Shown piece after piece: positions 1,140 to 7,173 of a stretch of 44,632 nucleotides of DNA; position 1 is the first letter of the stretch, and every line of letters begins with the position of its first letter. The stretch spans positions 1-44,632 of the IMG/VR virus record IMGVR_UViG_3300045988_026856. One strand, written 5' to 3'. Origin of the DNA: a virus (Duplodnaviria; Heunggongvirae; Uroviricota; Caudoviricetes). The translations under genes and the position numbers were made by a program. Below the pieces are notes generated by a model, which made no database searches, was not told where the DNA came from, and saw nothing but the letters and a program-made list of their open reading frames with translations.

Positions 1140-1168
1140 GGGCGGGCCTTAAGGCCTGCCCTTTAGTT
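1140..1168 (+). terminator. putative intrinsic terminator (GGGCGGGCC-TTAA-GGCCTGCCC + TTTAGTT)
   Basis: 9-bp GC-rich stem (one G-U) followed by a U-rich tract, plus strand only. Confidence 0.45.
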
Positions 1169-1262: not shown

Positions 1263-1296
1263 TCACTTATCGGAACGAAACAGAGGAGTGAGGGTT

Positions 1297-1476
1297 ATGT
1301 TTAAACGTGGTCAAATCGCACGAGATAACAACGGTTCTATTTATTCTATCCGTAGCATGGAGATTTTTAACGGGTTCTATCGTGTGCAGGATGTTGTTTC
1401 AGGTAAGGTGCTTGTACGCCATGCTTCCAATTTAAAGCTCATCGGCAACAATTTTAAATTCAAAGGGGTGGAGTGA
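1297..1476 (+). CDS. hypothetical early protein (59 aa)
   Basis: ORF track; start refined to ATG after GAGGAG RBS. Confidence 0.5.
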   Translation: MFKRGQIARDNNGSIYSIRSMEIFNGFYRVQDVVSGKVLVRHASNLKLIGNNFKFKGVE

Positions 1477-1679
1477 TGATTAAGCTAGAGATTAAATCGA
1501 AAGAGACAAAACAAACTGTAGCCAGTAAAGAATTCAACGGTAAATCTGAAATAGGTCCTTGGCTAAAACAGTACGTACATTTACAGACGGTTTACATCCT
1601 TCTGACTAGCGACAGCGGTATAACTACCGAACTAACGGCATTGGATAAAGAGGGGCGAAGTGATGGAAGAATTATTTGA
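1476..1679 (+). CDS. hypothetical early protein (67 aa)
   Basis: ORF track; GGGGTGGAG RBS; start overlaps upstream stop. Confidence 0.5.
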   Translation: MIKLEIKSKETKQTVASKEFNGKSEIGPWLKQYVHLQTVYILLTSDSGITTELTALDKEGRSDGRII

Positions 1680-1866
1680 AGAACTGAAACATCATAGACT
1701 GGAGAAAGTGCATTTCCAGGTAAACAGATACGAAGTTGTTTTATTAGACGGCCCAACTATTTCTTCCGGGGTATGCGAAGACTTGCTAAAAGTTTTACGT
1801 GCGCTACGAACGGCATCGAATCATGATGCTCGTGCCGAAGACTCTGAGGGAGGTTGCCGTGAATAA
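1663..1866 (+). CDS. hypothetical early protein (67 aa)
   Basis: ORF track; GAGGGG RBS. Confidence 0.5.
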   Translation: MEELFEELKHHRLEKVHFQVNRYEVVLLDGPTISSGVCEDLLKVLRALRTASNHDARAEDSEGGCRE

Positions 1867-1926
1867 TTACCCGTTTATTTTAATTGTCAGCGCAGTTTAT
1901 GTGGTGCACGCGTTATGGGGGTTGGT

Positions 1927-2082
1927 ATGAGAATCCGTATAACTGACCGCAGGCTTATAGATTTCGGTATCTCGGTAGGTGATGTTTTTCTGGCGTTCAG
2001 CAGCAACCATTATGGTTTTATGATTGAGTACAAAGGGTCGTTATTGTTCGTGTATCGGGATGAATGCGAGGTTCTGGTATGA
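1927..2082 (+). CDS. hypothetical small protein (51 aa)
   Basis: ATG with G-rich RBS; stop overlaps next ATG; below ORF-track cutoff. Confidence 0.3.
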   Translation: MRIRITDRRLIDFGISVGDVFLAFSSNHYGFMIEYKGSLLFVYRDECEVLV

Positions 2083-2222
2083 GAGAAGCATTCGAACGGT
2101 GGGCCGTCGTCGAGGGTCTGCCGGTAAACAAGGGTTCAAAGAAAGAGTACCTGAACGCTAAGACACGTCTCGCGTGGCGGGCGTGGAAAGCTGGTGTGCA
2201 AACTGTGATGAATAGGGGGTGA
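2079..2222 (+). CDS. hypothetical small protein (47 aa)
   Basis: ATGA overlap with upstream ORF; tight packing. Confidence 0.3.
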   Translation: MREAFERWAVVEGLPVNKGSKKEYLNAKTRLAWRAWKAGVQTVMNRG

Positions 2223-2225
2223 GAT

Positions 2226-2411
2226 ATGGGTGAGTGGATTAAGTGTAGTGAGCGGATACCGGAGCCTTATGAATACGTTCTTGTAACTGATTGTTTTGTT
2301 GGCTGTGAGGTTATGCGTGTTAATTCAGATGGCTACTGGGGGCCTGCAAAGAGTTTATATCACGGTGATATAACGCACTGGATGCCATTACCGGGGCCGC
2401 CAGAAGTGTGA
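2226..2411 (+). CDS. DUF551-like phage protein (61 aa)
   Basis: W..C..R.PE....VLV...........W.......ITHWMPLPGPP pattern typical of DUF551 (from memory). Confidence 0.6.
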   Translation: MGEWIKCSERIPEPYEYVLVTDCFVGCEVMRVNSDGYWGPAKSLYHGDITHWMPLPGPPEV

Positions 2412-2713
2412 TGTTCAATAGTTTGGGATTTTACTGAGTGACTTACGCTGCTACACAGCAGCGTATCATTTTTCTCATTTTTGTTCTATTTCACCAAACG
2501 CAACAATCGAAGCGACTATTGCAGGAGATGCAACAATGAAACTGAATGACATCGTGACCTGGACCGGTAGAAACGGAGAAAAGCGATTCGGGCTTATTGT
2601 TGAGTCAGACGGCAACAAGTACCGTGTTATGCGATGGCGTCAGTGAGCACGCCGCCCGAGGTACTACTGGATTCGTGGCGAACGATTATCTTTAAAACAC
2701 CAATAAAATTTAC

Positions 2714-2742
2714 TTGCACACTGGGATAGAATAGGCTACTAT
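2714..2742 (+). promoter_or_regulatory. promoter TTGCAC-N17-TACTAT (same family as 1234..1262)
   Basis: Hexamers plus AATAGGCTACTATT inverted repeat; about 30 nt upstream of ORF at 2773. Confidence 0.4.
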
Positions 2743-2772
2743 TCATTTACACAAACGAGAGGAGAGACAGAG

Positions 2773-2940
2773 ATGAAAGCAGTAACTAAAGATGAGTTTT
2801 TCAGCACAGTAGAAGGTCTTATGTATAACATGGTTATTAATGCGGGTACGCCAGAGTCTATCTACATAGATAGCGGTAATAATCTTGTCGCTAAAGCAAC
2901 ATGGAGTTACCCGGAAACCGTGTATGAGGTTGCGCAATGA
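2773..2940 (+). CDS. hypothetical small protein (55 aa)
   Basis: GAGAGGAGAG RBS; stop overlaps next start (ATGA). Confidence 0.4.
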   Translation: MKAVTKDEFFSTVEGLMYNMVINAGTPESIYIDSGNNLVAKATWSYPETVYEVAQ

Positions 2941-3164
2941 CCCCCGCAAAAGCACGTGCGCTGTTACGCCGCAATGGGATTCTTGATGAGGTGGACATCC
3001 TTGTAGAGAAATACGGCATACACATGATAGGTCGCCAGCCGAAAGGCGATATGCGTTGGATGGCGGGGGTCCCCGGTACGCCAGGCGTGTCATACGGCGA
3101 CACATTAACCCATGCGGTCCATACTTACATTATTGAGTCGGTACTAGGAGAAACCAATGAGTAA
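2937..3164 (+). CDS. hypothetical protein (75 aa)
   Basis: ORF track; translational coupling. Confidence 0.5.
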   Translation: MTPAKARALLRRNGILDEVDILVEKYGIHMIGRQPKGDMRWMAGVPGTPGVSYGDTLTHAVHTYIIESVLGETNE

Positions 3165-3609
3165 CAAAAACGAAGTATTCGAGTACCTGATTGGCCAGTT
3201 ACGGCAGCAGGTAAATTGCAACCAGTGTGAAGACCTGGCGCACGAGGTGCAGTCACTTAAGAATCAGTTACGTGATATGTCGGAGCTGGTGGATGAGCTA
3301 CTGGGGACAATAACGTTAATGAACGGGAAATCTAGTCGCCGTAAGGAAGATACTCAGTACAACGCCTGGAGGCCGCATTATGGTGCACGACAACCTGTGC
3401 CGGATGGGACTATGGTATTTATCCGGTATCGCAACGGGGAGGAGCCGAAACACAGTGTAGCAGCAGAAAAGCGGTCGTGGATTTGGGATGGAACATACGC
3501 AGACATAGTGGAATACAAGATTGACACACAGGAATGTGAACATGACTATCGTTTGGTTCTGTGGTGTAGCGACTTACAGCAGTGCTCTAAATGCGGGGTG
3601 ATCAAATGA
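3157..3609 (+). CDS. hypothetical protein (150 aa)
   Basis: ORF track; AGGAG RBS. Confidence 0.55.
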   Translation: MSNKNEVFEYLIGQLRQQVNCNQCEDLAHEVQSLKNQLRDMSELVDELLGTITLMNGKSSRRKEDTQYNAWRPHYGARQPVPDGTMVFIRYRNGEEPKHSVAAEKRSWIWDGTYADIVEYKIDTQECEHDYRLVLWCSDLQQCSKCGVIK

Positions 3610-3809
3610 CCAGCATATTATTTATCTGGGTACTGTCCGCGGGCCAGATGCAACTAGCGGCAGCAGAAACGTTTTATTCGATGGAGGCGTGCCAGTCCGC
3701 GGCACGCGCCGCAGAGAACGCGCACTTCCTGTTTCAGGGCGACAAGCCAAACGATTCAGAGGTACGCGCTATCTGCTCACCTAAGCGACTTGGTAAACAG
3801 GAGAAGTGA
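3606..3809 (+). CDS. hypothetical protein with N-terminal hydrophobic segment (67 aa)
   Basis: ORF track, start refined to ATG at 3606; 3' end lies in the 46-bp repeat. Confidence 0.5.
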   Translation: MTSILFIWVLSAGQMQLAAAETFYSMEACQSAARAAENAHFLFQGDKPNDSEVRAICSPKRLGKQEK

Positions 3810-3814
3810 TTATG
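3769..3814 (+). repeat. 46-bp direct repeat, copy A (CTATCTGCTCACCTAAGCGACTTGGTAAACAGGAGAAGTGATTATG)
   Basis: 44/46 identical to 4182..4227; spans a gene 3' end, the RBS and the next start codon. Confidence 0.8.
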
Positions 3815-4117
3815 AGCGCCGAAGCGATGAAGAAAAAGGTTTTGAACGCTTTGCAAGAAGCAGTGAACTGTGGTGCCATTAAAACATTCACAGAAAGGCA
3901 CGTCGGTGAAGTGACAGTTCACTGCTTTAATAGTAACAAAAACGGAATTGTGGTCATCATGCTTTTAAGGAATAGCGATGATACAGCCATCCTTTACGCT
4001 GGCGGATATGAGCTTATCGTTGATGATTTATTCATCACTTGCGCTGACGGCCTTGACCCAATGTTAACGTTCGAGCGGCGCGGCATCCGTGTTGCAACGT
4101 TTGGAGGGAAGTTATGA
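3812..4117 (+). CDS. hypothetical protein (101 aa)
   Basis: ORF track; start refined to ATG after AGGAGAAG RBS. Confidence 0.5.
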   Translation: MSAEAMKKKVLNALQEAVNCGAIKTFTERHVGEVTVHCFNSNKNGIVVIMLLRNSDDTAILYAGGYELIVDDLFITCADGLDPMLTFERRGIRVATFGGKL

Positions 4118-4209
4118 CATCAAATCTTAAAGCCCGTTTATTACCCATAAAGCCTCACGTGCTGTATAAGATGGACCAGCTCTATCTGCTCACCCAAGCG
4201 ACTTGGTAA
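4114..4209 (+). CDS. hypothetical small protein (31 aa)
   Basis: GGAGGG RBS; overlaps upstream stop; 3' end lies in repeat copy B. Confidence 0.25.
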   Translation: MTSNLKARLLPIKPHVLYKMDQLYLLTQATW

Positions 4210-4227
4210 ACAGGAGAAATGATTATG
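4182..4227 (+). repeat. 46-bp direct repeat, copy B
   Basis: See 3769..3814. Confidence 0.8.
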
Positions 4228-4407
4228 GTACAGAGATATACCTACGACCAGATATTCGGGTTTACTCCCGATGTTGAGGGCGTGTTAGTGCTTTACGAAG
4301 ATTACGCGAAACTCGAAGCTGAGTTACAGAAATACAAAGACCAGTTCCCGGATTACGTCGAGTGCGCGAACTGTGGGTCAGTTACGCATGTGGAAGGGGT
4401 GGAGTGA
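4225..4407 (+). CDS. hypothetical protein (60 aa); paralog of 4407..4601
   Basis: Shared MVQRY...DY.KLEA.L motif with the next gene. Confidence 0.45.
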   Translation: MVQRYTYDQIFGFTPDVEGVLVLYEDYAKLEAELQKYKDQFPDYVECANCGSVTHVEGVE

Positions 4408-4601
4408 TGGTGCAGAGATATGAGGTAAAAGCGTGGGGCCTGCCAGAGCCTGAGATGGCTGAGTACGCATATGGCGATTATGTAGAATACGACGCTTATC
4501 TGAAACTTGAAGCAAAGTTACGTGAATTCGCTGAACAGGTAATGTACGAACCTTGTTCGAAAGTTACAGAAGAAATGGCCCGCGAGATTCTCGGAATATG
4601 A
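4407..4601 (+). CDS. hypothetical protein (64 aa); paralog of 4225..4407
   Basis: Start refined to internal ATG with GGGGTGGAG RBS. Confidence 0.45.
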   Translation: MVQRYEVKAWGLPEPEMAEYAYGDYVEYDAYLKLEAKLREFAEQVMYEPCSKVTEEMAREILGI

Positions 4602-4891
4602 GCCTTGCAACTGACATCCTGAAACGAAGCGGCCTTGCGCCGCTGTCACCGAGAGCTAAAACACAGATATACAAGCGTCGCCGTAACGCGCTGTACCCGG
4701 AGATTCAGGCCAGACGTAAAGCGGTCCGCGCCTGTGGATTCCAGAACGGGAAGGCCGTGAATCTCGGTGAGTTTAAAACACAAGAACGCGCCGCAATCGC
4801 TAATCGACTATTTAATTACTGGAAATCGCTGGGGTACGATGATATTCCGACGAAACCCCAGAGACGACAATACATCTGGAGACACAAATAA
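4598..4891 (+). CDS. hypothetical basic protein (97 aa), possible AP2-like DNA-binding fold
   Basis: Start refined to ATG overlapping upstream stop; NGKAVNLGEFKTQERAAIA segment weakly AP2-like. Confidence 0.45.
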   Translation: MSLATDILKRSGLAPLSPRAKTQIYKRRRNALYPEIQARRKAVRACGFQNGKAVNLGEFKTQERAAIANRLFNYWKSLGYDDIPTKPQRRQYIWRHK

Positions 4892-4966
4892 ACAACTATT
4901 AGGATAATTCCTACCCGTGGTATCCTCCAGTTACTGCATACTTAATACGCACCTGGAGGATTCATC

Positions 4967-5275
4967 TTGGATAAATTTACTGAAACAGTGACAGGCTGGC
5001 TTCTCGCTGCCGCGCTAGCCGGAGGGGTCATCGGACTACGACAACATAAGTCCGTTATTTCTGGACCCATCGACGGCTTATTCTTTATTGTAACCGGCTT
5101 CGCTTGCGCCGTATTCGGTGCGCCTCTCGCTGCCCAATGGTTCGGCATTACCGGGGAGCGTGAAATCGCTGGTCTGGGTTTCATCATCGCTATTCTCTGG
5201 ATGCCTATCTATTCCCGCCTCTCCGGTATCGTCGCCGGGGAATACATCTCACGTCGAGGAGGCCCGGATGAATGA
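4967..5275 (+). CDS. holin (3 predicted TM segments, charged C-terminus)
   Basis: TTG start after GGAGGA RBS; three hydrophobic helices; directly upstream of endolysin. Confidence 0.6.
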   Translation: MDKFTETVTGWLLAAALAGGVIGLRQHKSVISGPIDGLFFIVTGFACAVFGAPLAAQWFGITGEREIAGLGFIIAILWMPIYSRLSGIVAGEYISRRGGPDE

Positions 5276-5540
5276 GTTATTCTGGTTCGGCGGTATGCTG
5301 GCAATCGGGGGTACATCGCTGTTTAATGTGTACCATCCCAGCGTTGATGACGGGTTATTCGGTCGGGTGCTCTATATCCTGACTGCTATCGTCTGCGCCG
5401 CCGGATGTATCCACCTGTTACAGGGCAGCGTGTCACCAACGCTGCCTGAGACATTAATCACATTAGTTGCGCTGCGCCAGATTCGTCAGGCGTGGCTGTC
5501 ATACGGAGGACATAAGCGTGTCTCGAAATATTTCAGATAA
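5268..5540 (+). CDS. second holin-like / antiholin-like membrane protein (2 TM, 90 aa)
   Basis: ATG after GAGGAGG RBS, overlaps holin stop; two hydrophobic helices. Confidence 0.5.
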   Translation: MNELFWFGGMLAIGGTSLFNVYHPSVDDGLFGRVLYILTAIVCAAGCIHLLQGSVSPTLPETLITLVALRQIRQAWLSYGGHKRVSKYFR

Positions 5541-6003
5541 TGGACTGCATTTCACCGCCGCGTTCGAGGGGTTCCGTGGTACTGCATATCGTGCTACGCC
5601 AAATGAGAAGTACCTTACTATTGGATATGGGCATTACGGGCCGGACATAACACCGGGTAAGACCATCACGCCGGGACAGGGCCTTCTGTTACTGAATCGC
5701 GATATGGCTAAGGCCGTAGCCGCGGTTGACGCAGCGGCGCATCATTCATTGACACAGGCGCAGTTCGACGCCGTGTGCGACCTGGTCTATAACGCAGGTG
5801 CGGGTGTTATCGCGGCTACTACCGGCACCGGTAAGGCACTGCGCTCCGGTGATACCGCGACGCTGCGCGCTAAGCTGGCGCTGTTCATCAACCAGAACGG
5901 CAAACCATTACTCGGCTTGCGCCGCCGTACTGCGGGTCGTCTGGCGCTGTTCGACGGCAAACCGTGGCAAGAGGCTGAGGCTATCGGGAGGGCGGTTAAA
6001 TGA
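5518..6003 (+). CDS. endolysin, lysozyme-like (GH24-type)
   Basis: FEGFRGTAY...TIGYGH motif resembling phage lysozymes; probable GTG start after GGAGGA. Confidence 0.7.
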   Translation: MSRNISDNGLHFTAAFEGFRGTAYRATPNEKYLTIGYGHYGPDITPGKTITPGQGLLLLNRDMAKAVAAVDAAAHHSLTQAQFDAVCDLVYNAGAGVIAATTGTGKALRSGDTATLRAKLALFINQNGKPLLGLRRRTAGRLALFDGKPWQEAEAIGRAVK

Positions 6004-6701: not shown

Positions 6702-6934
6702 CTGACCGTGAATACGAAAAGATGATGGTAGAGGCCGTTAACGGCGGCGTAGACGTAAGCCACGTGATGCACGTCCTGAATACTAAAATCGCAGTAGCGG
6801 AGCAAATGGTAGAGTCGCTTTACGAGACTCGCCGTGAACTGATTAACCGCTTCAACCTGAACAAGGGGTGCGCTATTTCTGACGATTTCGATGGGGATTA
6901 CCGAAATGGAGATTTTTATGAGGGGGCCGAATAA
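6698..6934 (+). CDS. hypothetical protein (78 aa)
   Basis: ORF track. Confidence 0.5.
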   Translation: MTDREYEKMMVEAVNGGVDVSHVMHVLNTKIAVAEQMVESLYETRRELINRFNLNKGCAISDDFDGDYRNGDFYEGAE

Positions 6935-7173
6935 TGCCTAAAATCACAATCGCATCGCTCGAGCGCCGTATTATGGTGCTTGAGTCAGAGAAACAGACGC
7001 TAGGCGGGCAACTGTCAATTAACGGTGAGTTTCAACTGGAGGCATTTAAGTTGTTGCTTGATAAGTTGAAAGAGGGTGAAAAGCCTTGTGCGCATGACTA
7101 CTACTTACATGTGGTTGGCGGGTTACATCGAGCCACGTGCATTAAATGTGGTGAAGCGTATGGAGTCGCCTAA
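6934..7173 (+). CDS. hypothetical protein (79 aa) with C..H...C..C motif
   Basis: ORF track. Confidence 0.5.
   Translation: MPKITIASLERRIMVLESEKQTLGGQLSINGEFQLEAFKLLLDKLKEGEKPCAHDYYLHVVGGLHRATCIKCGEAYGVA

Follow-up and report, generated by a model that had tools for sequence, protein, structure and literature searches.

Genes A and B of a Kagunavirus-like phage are adjacent members of a modular family of small acidic proteins

The stretch of DNA analysed here, called the window in the following, comprises 44,632 nucleotides and belongs to a Kagunavirus-like (Guernseyvirinae) siphophage of E. coli. A megablast search with positions 3800-5000 retrieved 158 phage records with 85-95% identity, nearly all of them of Escherichia or Salmonella Kagunavirus-type. 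On the plus strand, from about 1288 to 4891, the window carries a series of short open reading frames, which mostly overlap and are translationally coupled. This run is followed by a lysis cassette (4967-6003) consisting of two holin-like genes and an endolysin gene, by further small open reading frames and by the terminase from 7926 onwards. In the one expression time course of a Kagunavirus that was found, just 4 of 57 genes were classed as early; the initial annotation spoke of an early region here, a designation that is tentative. We detected the best sigma-70-like site of the first 9 kb at 911-940 on the plus strand (11 of 12 matches), opposite a helix-turn-helix-like gene on the minus strand (631-927). 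A strong terminator-like hairpin (1140-1161, plus strand) lies after this site and ahead of the small-gene array. Together, these elements may be the regulatory region of the array.

The two genes studied here, A and B, are situated at the end of this first small-gene run, between the promoter-like site at 911-940 and the lysis cassette, and are followed by a conserved gene that served as an anchor:

4225..4407, plus strand: gene A, 60 amino acids plus TGA, pI 4.25, member of phrog_29624 over its full length
4407..4601, plus strand: gene B, 64 amino acids plus TGA, pI 4.41, without confident PHROG or Pfam match
4598..4891, plus strand: downstream anchor gene, 97 amino acids, phrog_9632, conserved

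The gene borders given in the initial annotation were correct. Both frames are open, and the stop codon of A overlaps the start codon of B in an ATGA. The stop codon of B and the start of the anchor gene (4598) overlap in the same way. Both genes have purine-rich ribosome-binding regions, with an AGGAG 8 nt upstream of the start in the case of A. Their products are strongly acidic, with a net charge of about -8. In GenBank records of Kagunavirus relatives the genes are annotated separately as hypothetical proteins of 183 and 195 nt. Among close homologues, variable sites are distributed over the first, second and third codon positions as 3/5/16 in A and 4/7/27 in B, and as 4/7/18 in the C-terminal part of A alone. 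This excess at the third position indicates that A and B are real coding genes under purifying selection.

Both genes can be divided into the same four parts, all of them on the plus strand:

4225..4239: A, conserved N-terminal strand MVQRY (family consensus M-V-x-R-Y at residue 1)
4240..4293: A, residues 6-23 (TYDQIFGFTPDVEGVLVL), variable; at least 30 such loop types, unrelated to each other, exist
4294..4326: A, hinge YEDYAKLEAEL, end of the N-domain and first coiled-coil heptads
4327..4404: A, module C1 at the C-terminus, QKYKDQFPDYVECANCGSVTHVEGVE; 25 columns are invariant in an alignment of 46 sequences
4407..4421: B, conserved N-terminal strand MVQRY, repeat family D2
4422..4487: B, residues 6-27 (EVKAWGLPEPEMAEYAYGDYVE), variable and dissimilar to the segment of A
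4488..4520: B, hinge YDAYLKLEAKL, coiled-coil start with Y31, L34, L38, F41 and V45 in 3-4-3-4 spacing
4521..4598: B, C-terminal module C2, REFAEQVMYEPCSKVTEEMAREILGI, predicted to pair with the hinge helix in a helical hairpin

The two starts (4225-4239 and 4407-4421) form a 15-nt direct repeat (repeat family D2) with 14 of 15 positions identical. In A, too, a 3-4-3-4 spacing of hydrophobic residues can be read from the sequence (Y27, L30, L34, Y37, F41). Module C1 is nearly invariant across the family and contains one CxxC and one His; the ribosome-binding region and the start of the next gene lie within its last codons.

In a single BLASTP comparison A and B shared 20 of 59 residues (34%, E=5e-5). 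Their local BLOSUM62 score of 56 lies about 6 standard deviations above the mean of shuffled sequences (25.5 +/- 4.9) and was reached by none of 5000 shuffles. The similarity is not confined to MVQRY: after removal of the first five residues the score was 51 (5.3 standard deviations above shuffles of 24.9 +/- 4.9) and was reached by only 2 of 5000 shuffles. It is concentrated in the hinge, where the score of YEDYAKLEAEL against YDAYLKLEAKL was reached by 9 of 20000 shuffles. The C-terminal halves are marginal in this respect (602 of 20000), and the variable N-terminal segments of 18-22 residues are dissimilar (15239 of 20000). In nucleotide sequence, the two genes are alike only in the first 15 nt (14/15 identical) and in the hinge (31/48). 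The common core thus reads MVQRY plus Y-x-[DA]-Y-x-K-L-E-A-x-L. The motif DY.KLEA.L, which had been proposed for both proteins, is present in A (DYAKLEAEL) and requires correction for B, which reads AYLKLEAKL.

Alignments of the A and B families were related by hhalign with a probability of 98.6% (E=1.3e-15), a comparison that is partly circular due to loop types common to both. Since natural chimeras also link the two families, the description of A and B as tandem paralogous small genes holds. The opposite idea, a chance resemblance of two unrelated short reading frames, could appeal to their shortness and similar composition (acidic, Tyr-rich) as well as to the variable and C-terminal segments, which are not significantly similar. 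Given the shuffle tests, the profile-profile comparison and the chimeras, its probability is practically negligible. Judged from these comparisons, A and B are paralogous and have in common a homologous N-terminal domain and the start of a predicted coiled coil. A search with the family HMM revealed no third copy in the window, so that A and B are its only members; their own E-values (4.7e-34 and 2.7e-32) are circular, as both helped to define the family.

The N-terminal domain (N-domain) can be described by the consensus M-V-x-R-Y, a variable loop of 13-26 residues and the block [DE]-G-x-[YWF]-V-x-Y-E-D-Y-A-x-L-E. For assigning membership, the family was defined as MVxRY, loop and G-x-[YWFL]-V-x-Y-x-[DA]-Y-x-x-L-E. 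Both proteins of the window show MVQRY at residue 1 and the G-...-L-E block after a loop of 13-26 residues. The block reads G19-V-L-V-L-Y-E-D-Y-A-K-L-E31 in A and G23-D-Y-V-E-Y-D-A-Y-L-K-L-E35 in B, where Ala replaces the near-invariant Asp. In a profile search against 1.84 billion representatives, 363 clusters (50% identity) were found at E<=1e-3. In most of them the match is limited to positions 1 to about 44 of the profile and lies at the extreme N-terminus of proteins which comprise 45-306 residues and have diverse C-terminal parts. Of 100 cases defined by a regular expression, 94 have the domain beginning with residue 1, and the variable stretch comprises 13-26 residues; G, V, Y, D, Y and L are each conserved in 96-98 of 98 sequences and E in 83 of 98. 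Members of the wider family are encoded in phage small-gene arrays, one of them between a primase-helicase and a lysozyme gene, and P0323 adjoins an Ead_Ea22 gene, NinX and SSB. Four metagenomic proteins (P0235, P0237, P0251, P0264) contain two complete N-domains per polypeptide, the second one after an internal Met, and look like tandem genes fused into one reading frame.

The shared blocks might alternatively be nucleotide-level signals only, serving translation initiation or as recombination linkers, with no homologous protein domain behind them. The conserved blocks do coincide with recombination breakpoints (see below), and the gene-boundary linkers are conserved as DNA. However, distant members start with MVKRY, MVDRY, MIERF or MVNRY, while the hinge residues G, V, Y, D, Y, L and E are kept at 85-100% (computed across 50%-identity representatives). 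This pattern indicates conservation at the protein level. Variation among close alleles is, moreover, mostly synonymous. We therefore regard nucleotide signals as the sole cause of the shared blocks as unlikely; as a contributing factor they are compatible with the data.

Database searches yielded 403 proteins related to A and 44 related to B. None of them has a Pfam domain or an informative name, and nearly all are encoded on contigs of 40-45 kb. Two proteins, P0095 and P0116, appear in both lists and combine a B-type N-terminal half with an A-type C-terminal half; P0141 is the reverse chimera, with A-type N-terminus and B-type C-terminus. With all sequences aligned on the hinge, a general modular layout emerges: MVQRY, the variable segment, [G]-x-[YWF]-V-x-Y-E-D-Y-A-K-L-E-A-E-L, an optional helical insert and a tail. 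Besides C1 (QKYKDQFPDYVECANCGSVTHVEGVE, in A) and C2 (REFAEQV..PCSKVTEEMAREILGI, in B) there are at least five other, unrelated tails. Clustering distinguished at least 30 loop types and at least 7 tail types, and 13 loop clusters occurred with two or more different tails; the module table is skewed to C1 and C2, because these were the queries. The loop type of B is joined to C1, C2, C3, C4 and C5 tails in other phages. The inserts between hinge and C1 comprise 7, 17, 21, 25, 28 or 32 residues. All of these lengths are 0, 3 or 4 modulo 7 and thus fit an uninterrupted amphipathic or coiled-coil helix whose length varies.

A corresponding mosaic was observed in the DNA. Aligned pairwise with related loci, the window shows abrupt switches of identity between at least 90% and about 35-45%, with breakpoints at 4240, about 4295 and 4407/4598. 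Positions 4240-4295 are replaced in L012, L006, L024, L013 and L028, while the flank 4180-4239 with linker and MVQRY and the sequence from about 4300 with hinge and C1 are conserved. Gene B is precisely absent in L035, L024 and L013. At its end C1 reads ...GTGGA[AG]GGGGTGGAGTGATG, or in a longer form ...CATGTGGA[AG]GGGGTGGAGTGATG, and is directly followed by a B-type gene or by the anchor gene. From about 4180 in the upstream direction, the window departs from every one of the loci compared. This region contains two copies of a linker:

4179..4227, plus strand: linker copy 2, running from the 3' end of the preceding gene through AGGAG to the ATG of A; 49-nt repeat family D1
3766..3814, plus strand: linker copy 1, 94% identical to 4179-4227

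The 49-nt linker consists of the 3' end of the gene we call 'MTSILF', AGGAG and ATG. It is located before the first family gene, before the anchor gene in phages without the family, or before a foreign cassette. Between the two linker copies identity to Kagunavirus relatives is lost. The enclosed cassette (3815-4178, about 364 nt) is bracketed by the linker repeats and absent from all related Kagunavirus loci. The linker repeat looks like a footprint of the insertion of this cassette at a conserved gene-boundary linker. The reading frame 3806-4117 (103 amino acids, probable real start ATG 3812) encodes a protein without PHROG or Pfam match, for which the phage collection contained no relative from a Kagunavirus. 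It is most similar to proteins of the Wifcevirus myophages WFH, WFC, ECML-117 and Bas100 (72-90% amino acid identity), pointing to a putative gene exchange between unrelated coliphage families. The frame 4114-4209 (31 amino acids) has its last 31 nt within the duplicated linker (4179-4209), in a frame unlike the original gene end. It shows no family match and may be a by-product of the insertion instead of a gene.

The copy number of the family genes was determined by anchoring on the conserved downstream gene (4598..4891) in order to avoid ascertainment bias. The following was found:

37 Kagunavirus-like loci: two family genes in 11, one in 19 (including 1 truncated gene and 1 C1/C2 fusion), none in 7
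25 more distant loci: two family genes in 1, one in 7, none in 17

In loci without family genes the 'MTSILF' gene directly abuts the anchor, so that their absence is genuine. As related phages hold 0, 1 or 2 copies at this site, the family genes are dispensable. Where two copies are present, the C1 sequence VEGVE forms the end of the first gene, the second bears C2 or one of C4-C6, and the loops of the two genes always differ. Derived forms occur at this locus as well. The single gene of L028 (3672-4004) combines C1 with an in-frame C2-like tail (junction FPDYV|KLELKL), and L027 (3682-3783) contains a remnant of 33 residues that starts inside the hinge. Recombination or deletion between tandem copies seems to have produced both of them.

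These data bear on the proposal, made in the initial annotation, that A and B arose by local duplication. In the strict sense, i.e. with B as a young diverged copy of A or vice versa, this agrees with the adjacency and co-orientation of the genes, their ATGA overlap, the 14 of 15 identical nucleotides at MVQRY and the similar hinges. However, the remainder of A and B is unalignable at both DNA and protein level. Furthermore, the same ordered pair, with B being 95-98% identical, occurs in many other phages, and both loop types and both tails are found in other combinations and as single genes. A tandem pair is present even in the distant, Jersey-like locus L054. A recent local tandem duplication is thus quite improbable. 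What stands of the proposal is a duplication, but an old one; as a recent event in this genome it fails, since A and B are mostly unalignable and the pair recurs elsewhere. It is more apt to regard A and B as two members of the family that were put together by exchange of modules.

AlphaFold predicted for A a short N-terminal hairpin and a helix at residues 24-40; with a pLDDT of 61 this model is unreliable and was left out of the fold search. The model of B shows helices at 28-47 and 52-62 with a pLDDT above 90 (90-93), and a low-confidence N-terminus. The hairpin picture of the N-domain suggested by the modelling is therefore weak. Foldseek searches of PDB and BFVD with the B model returned its own orthologue (97% identical) and otherwise only non-significant helical matches. 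When PDB sequences were searched with the family profiles, no match had an E-value below 0.1.

Scans of A, B, their neighbours and long relatives against Pfam, PHROGs and NCBIfam detected no significant functional match; they yielded PHROGs of 'unknown function', coiled-coil noise and sub-threshold matches to zinc ribbons and Lar. A matches positions 1-60 of 60 of phrog_29624, a sequence cluster of unknown function, with E=1.2e-45. B matches this cluster in its N-domain only (E=0.14) and not over the full length, and the first approximately 40 positions are also matched by other N-domain proteins. Thus, phrog_29624 captures the combination of N-domain and C1, not the wider N-domain family. For B, a weak match (E=0.0044) to phrog_37174, likewise of unknown function, was obtained with residues 22-63 on positions 27-68 of 69; P0254 matches positions 1-48 of this cluster (E=4.6e-4). 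Literature searches returned no description of A, B, the hotspot or the modular architecture. Already catalogued are the hypothetical proteins as such and the place of A in phrog_29624. New are the N-domain common to A and B and the building-block architecture.

The resemblance to Lar raises the question whether A is a reduced Lar-like zinc-ribbon protein (Rac prophage Lar/RalR, lambda Ral-type) that alleviates restriction. The 'Y-V-x-C-x-x-C-G-S-x-T' stretch of C1 resembles the second zinc knuckle of Lar, and 'YVECANCGSVT' resembles 'YRAKCNGCESRT' of E. coli RalR. The C1 region recurrently gave sub-threshold matches to PF14354 (Lar_restr_allev), with E=0.087 and 13.5 bits for A and with E=7.7e-5 and 23.3 bits for the best relative, the read-through variant P0115. 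All PF14354 scores are, however, below the gathering cut-off of 28.6 bits. A contains a single C47-x-x-C50 (plus H55), whereas RalR has two knuckles, C9-x-x-C12 and C30-x-x-C33, and hhalign related the A family to RalR with a probability of only 1.6% over 9 columns. In the profile of phrog_3592 ('Lar-like restriction alleviation protein'), the N-terminal 60-70 positions align with N-domain and hinge of several members (P0351, P0119, P0326 and P0235, E=4e-5 to 4e-4; A, 0.043), but these matches fall on the N-domain and the coil, not on the zinc ribbon. In addition, Kagunavirus isolates of the BASEL collection are reported to be highly sensitive to restriction-modification, although Bas71 and Bas72 carry C1 and a B-like gene. 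With regard to PF14354, RalR and phrog_3592 we thus speak of a resemblance of A, not of membership, and a role of A as an anti-restriction protein is most improbable.

Mosaic early or accessory arrays are known from other tailed phages, e.g. the lambdoid ea and nin regions with their Ead/Ea22-like coiled-coil proteins, and phage mosaicism has been described by the 'moron' and the boundary-sequence models. Like the genes of the lambdoid arrays, A and B are small, dispensable, co-oriented and translationally coupled. Modules are swapped at conserved junctions here, too, and the proteins have predicted coiled-coil cores. Unlike in the lambdoid arrays, the exchanged units are sub-genic (loop cassettes of about 55-70 nt, helical inserts and tails) and the proteins comprise only 60-100 residues. 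Membership in Ead/Ea22 (PF13935) was rejected, as neither A nor B matched even at E<=1; the sole link is the Ead_Ea22 gene adjoining P0323. A diversity-generating retroelement is an improbable source of the loop variation: the loop alleles are unalignable and not point-mutated, and the blocks move by recombination. Among close A alleles the loop shows 5 nonsynonymous and 2 synonymous changes compared to 3 and 11 elsewhere (p=0.056), while the result for B is not significant. The excess of amino acid changes in the loop of A is at most suggestive; the loop may simply be unconstrained and not a specificity determinant.

Taken as a whole, the data probably reflect two adjacent members of a modular acidic family that underwent an old duplication followed by module exchange and whose products are accessory coiled-coil oligomers. 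We are confident about the evolutionary and architectural part of this explanation; the functional part is tentative and open to considerable doubt. The pair would have originated from an old duplication and would later have been reassembled by homologous or short-homology recombination, both between co-infecting relatives and between tandem copies. The breakpoints of exchange lie at the conserved start, the hinge and the gene-boundary linkers, and loops, inserts and C-terminal modules assort independently. As far as can be told from the sequences, the N-domain runs directly into an amphipathic helix by which the proteins may form coiled-coil oligomers. A and B might serve as dispensable accessory factors binding a protein of the host or of a rival phage, and the variable loop and/or the C-terminal module might make this binding specific.

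A more far-reaching variant, which we consider rather unlikely, takes the N-domain as a miniature binding scaffold. It would present the loop between two invariant strands on an adjustable coiled-coil stalk, with specificity under diversifying selection and a recombination-driven repertoire directed against variable host-defence or rival-phage proteins. If this were true, a phage with a tandem pair such as A and B would possess two specificities.

For the window, the annotation is settled as two real genes of one family, a result of modest biological importance. Beyond this, an N-terminal domain without Pfam entry is now defined, which occurs in several hundred protein clusters and ranges over the small-gene arrays of Guernseyvirinae-like phages and relatives. 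In addition, the locus illustrates very cleanly, and on a small scale, how sub-genic mosaicism occurs at conserved linkers. It may be of use for studying the assembly of phage accessory genes and for picking deletion or swap targets in Kagunavirus chassis phages.

Mosaic relations to the A/B family were also observed for the gene at 3157-3609 (150 amino acids, phrog_6094). Its N-terminus is combined with tail C2 in P0162, and with a long coil and the last C1 residues in L007:3387-4001. P0236 consists of a B-type N-domain and the C-terminal zinc ribbon of the 3157-3609 gene. This 'C-x-H ... C-x-x-C-G' zinc-ribbon tail is a movable module which recurs on several small proteins, i.e. at the C-termini of 3157-3609 and 6934-7173, in P0001, P0002 and P0115 and in L033:3702-4004. 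Some phages have this tail fused to A-type genes through loss of the stop codon after VEGVE.
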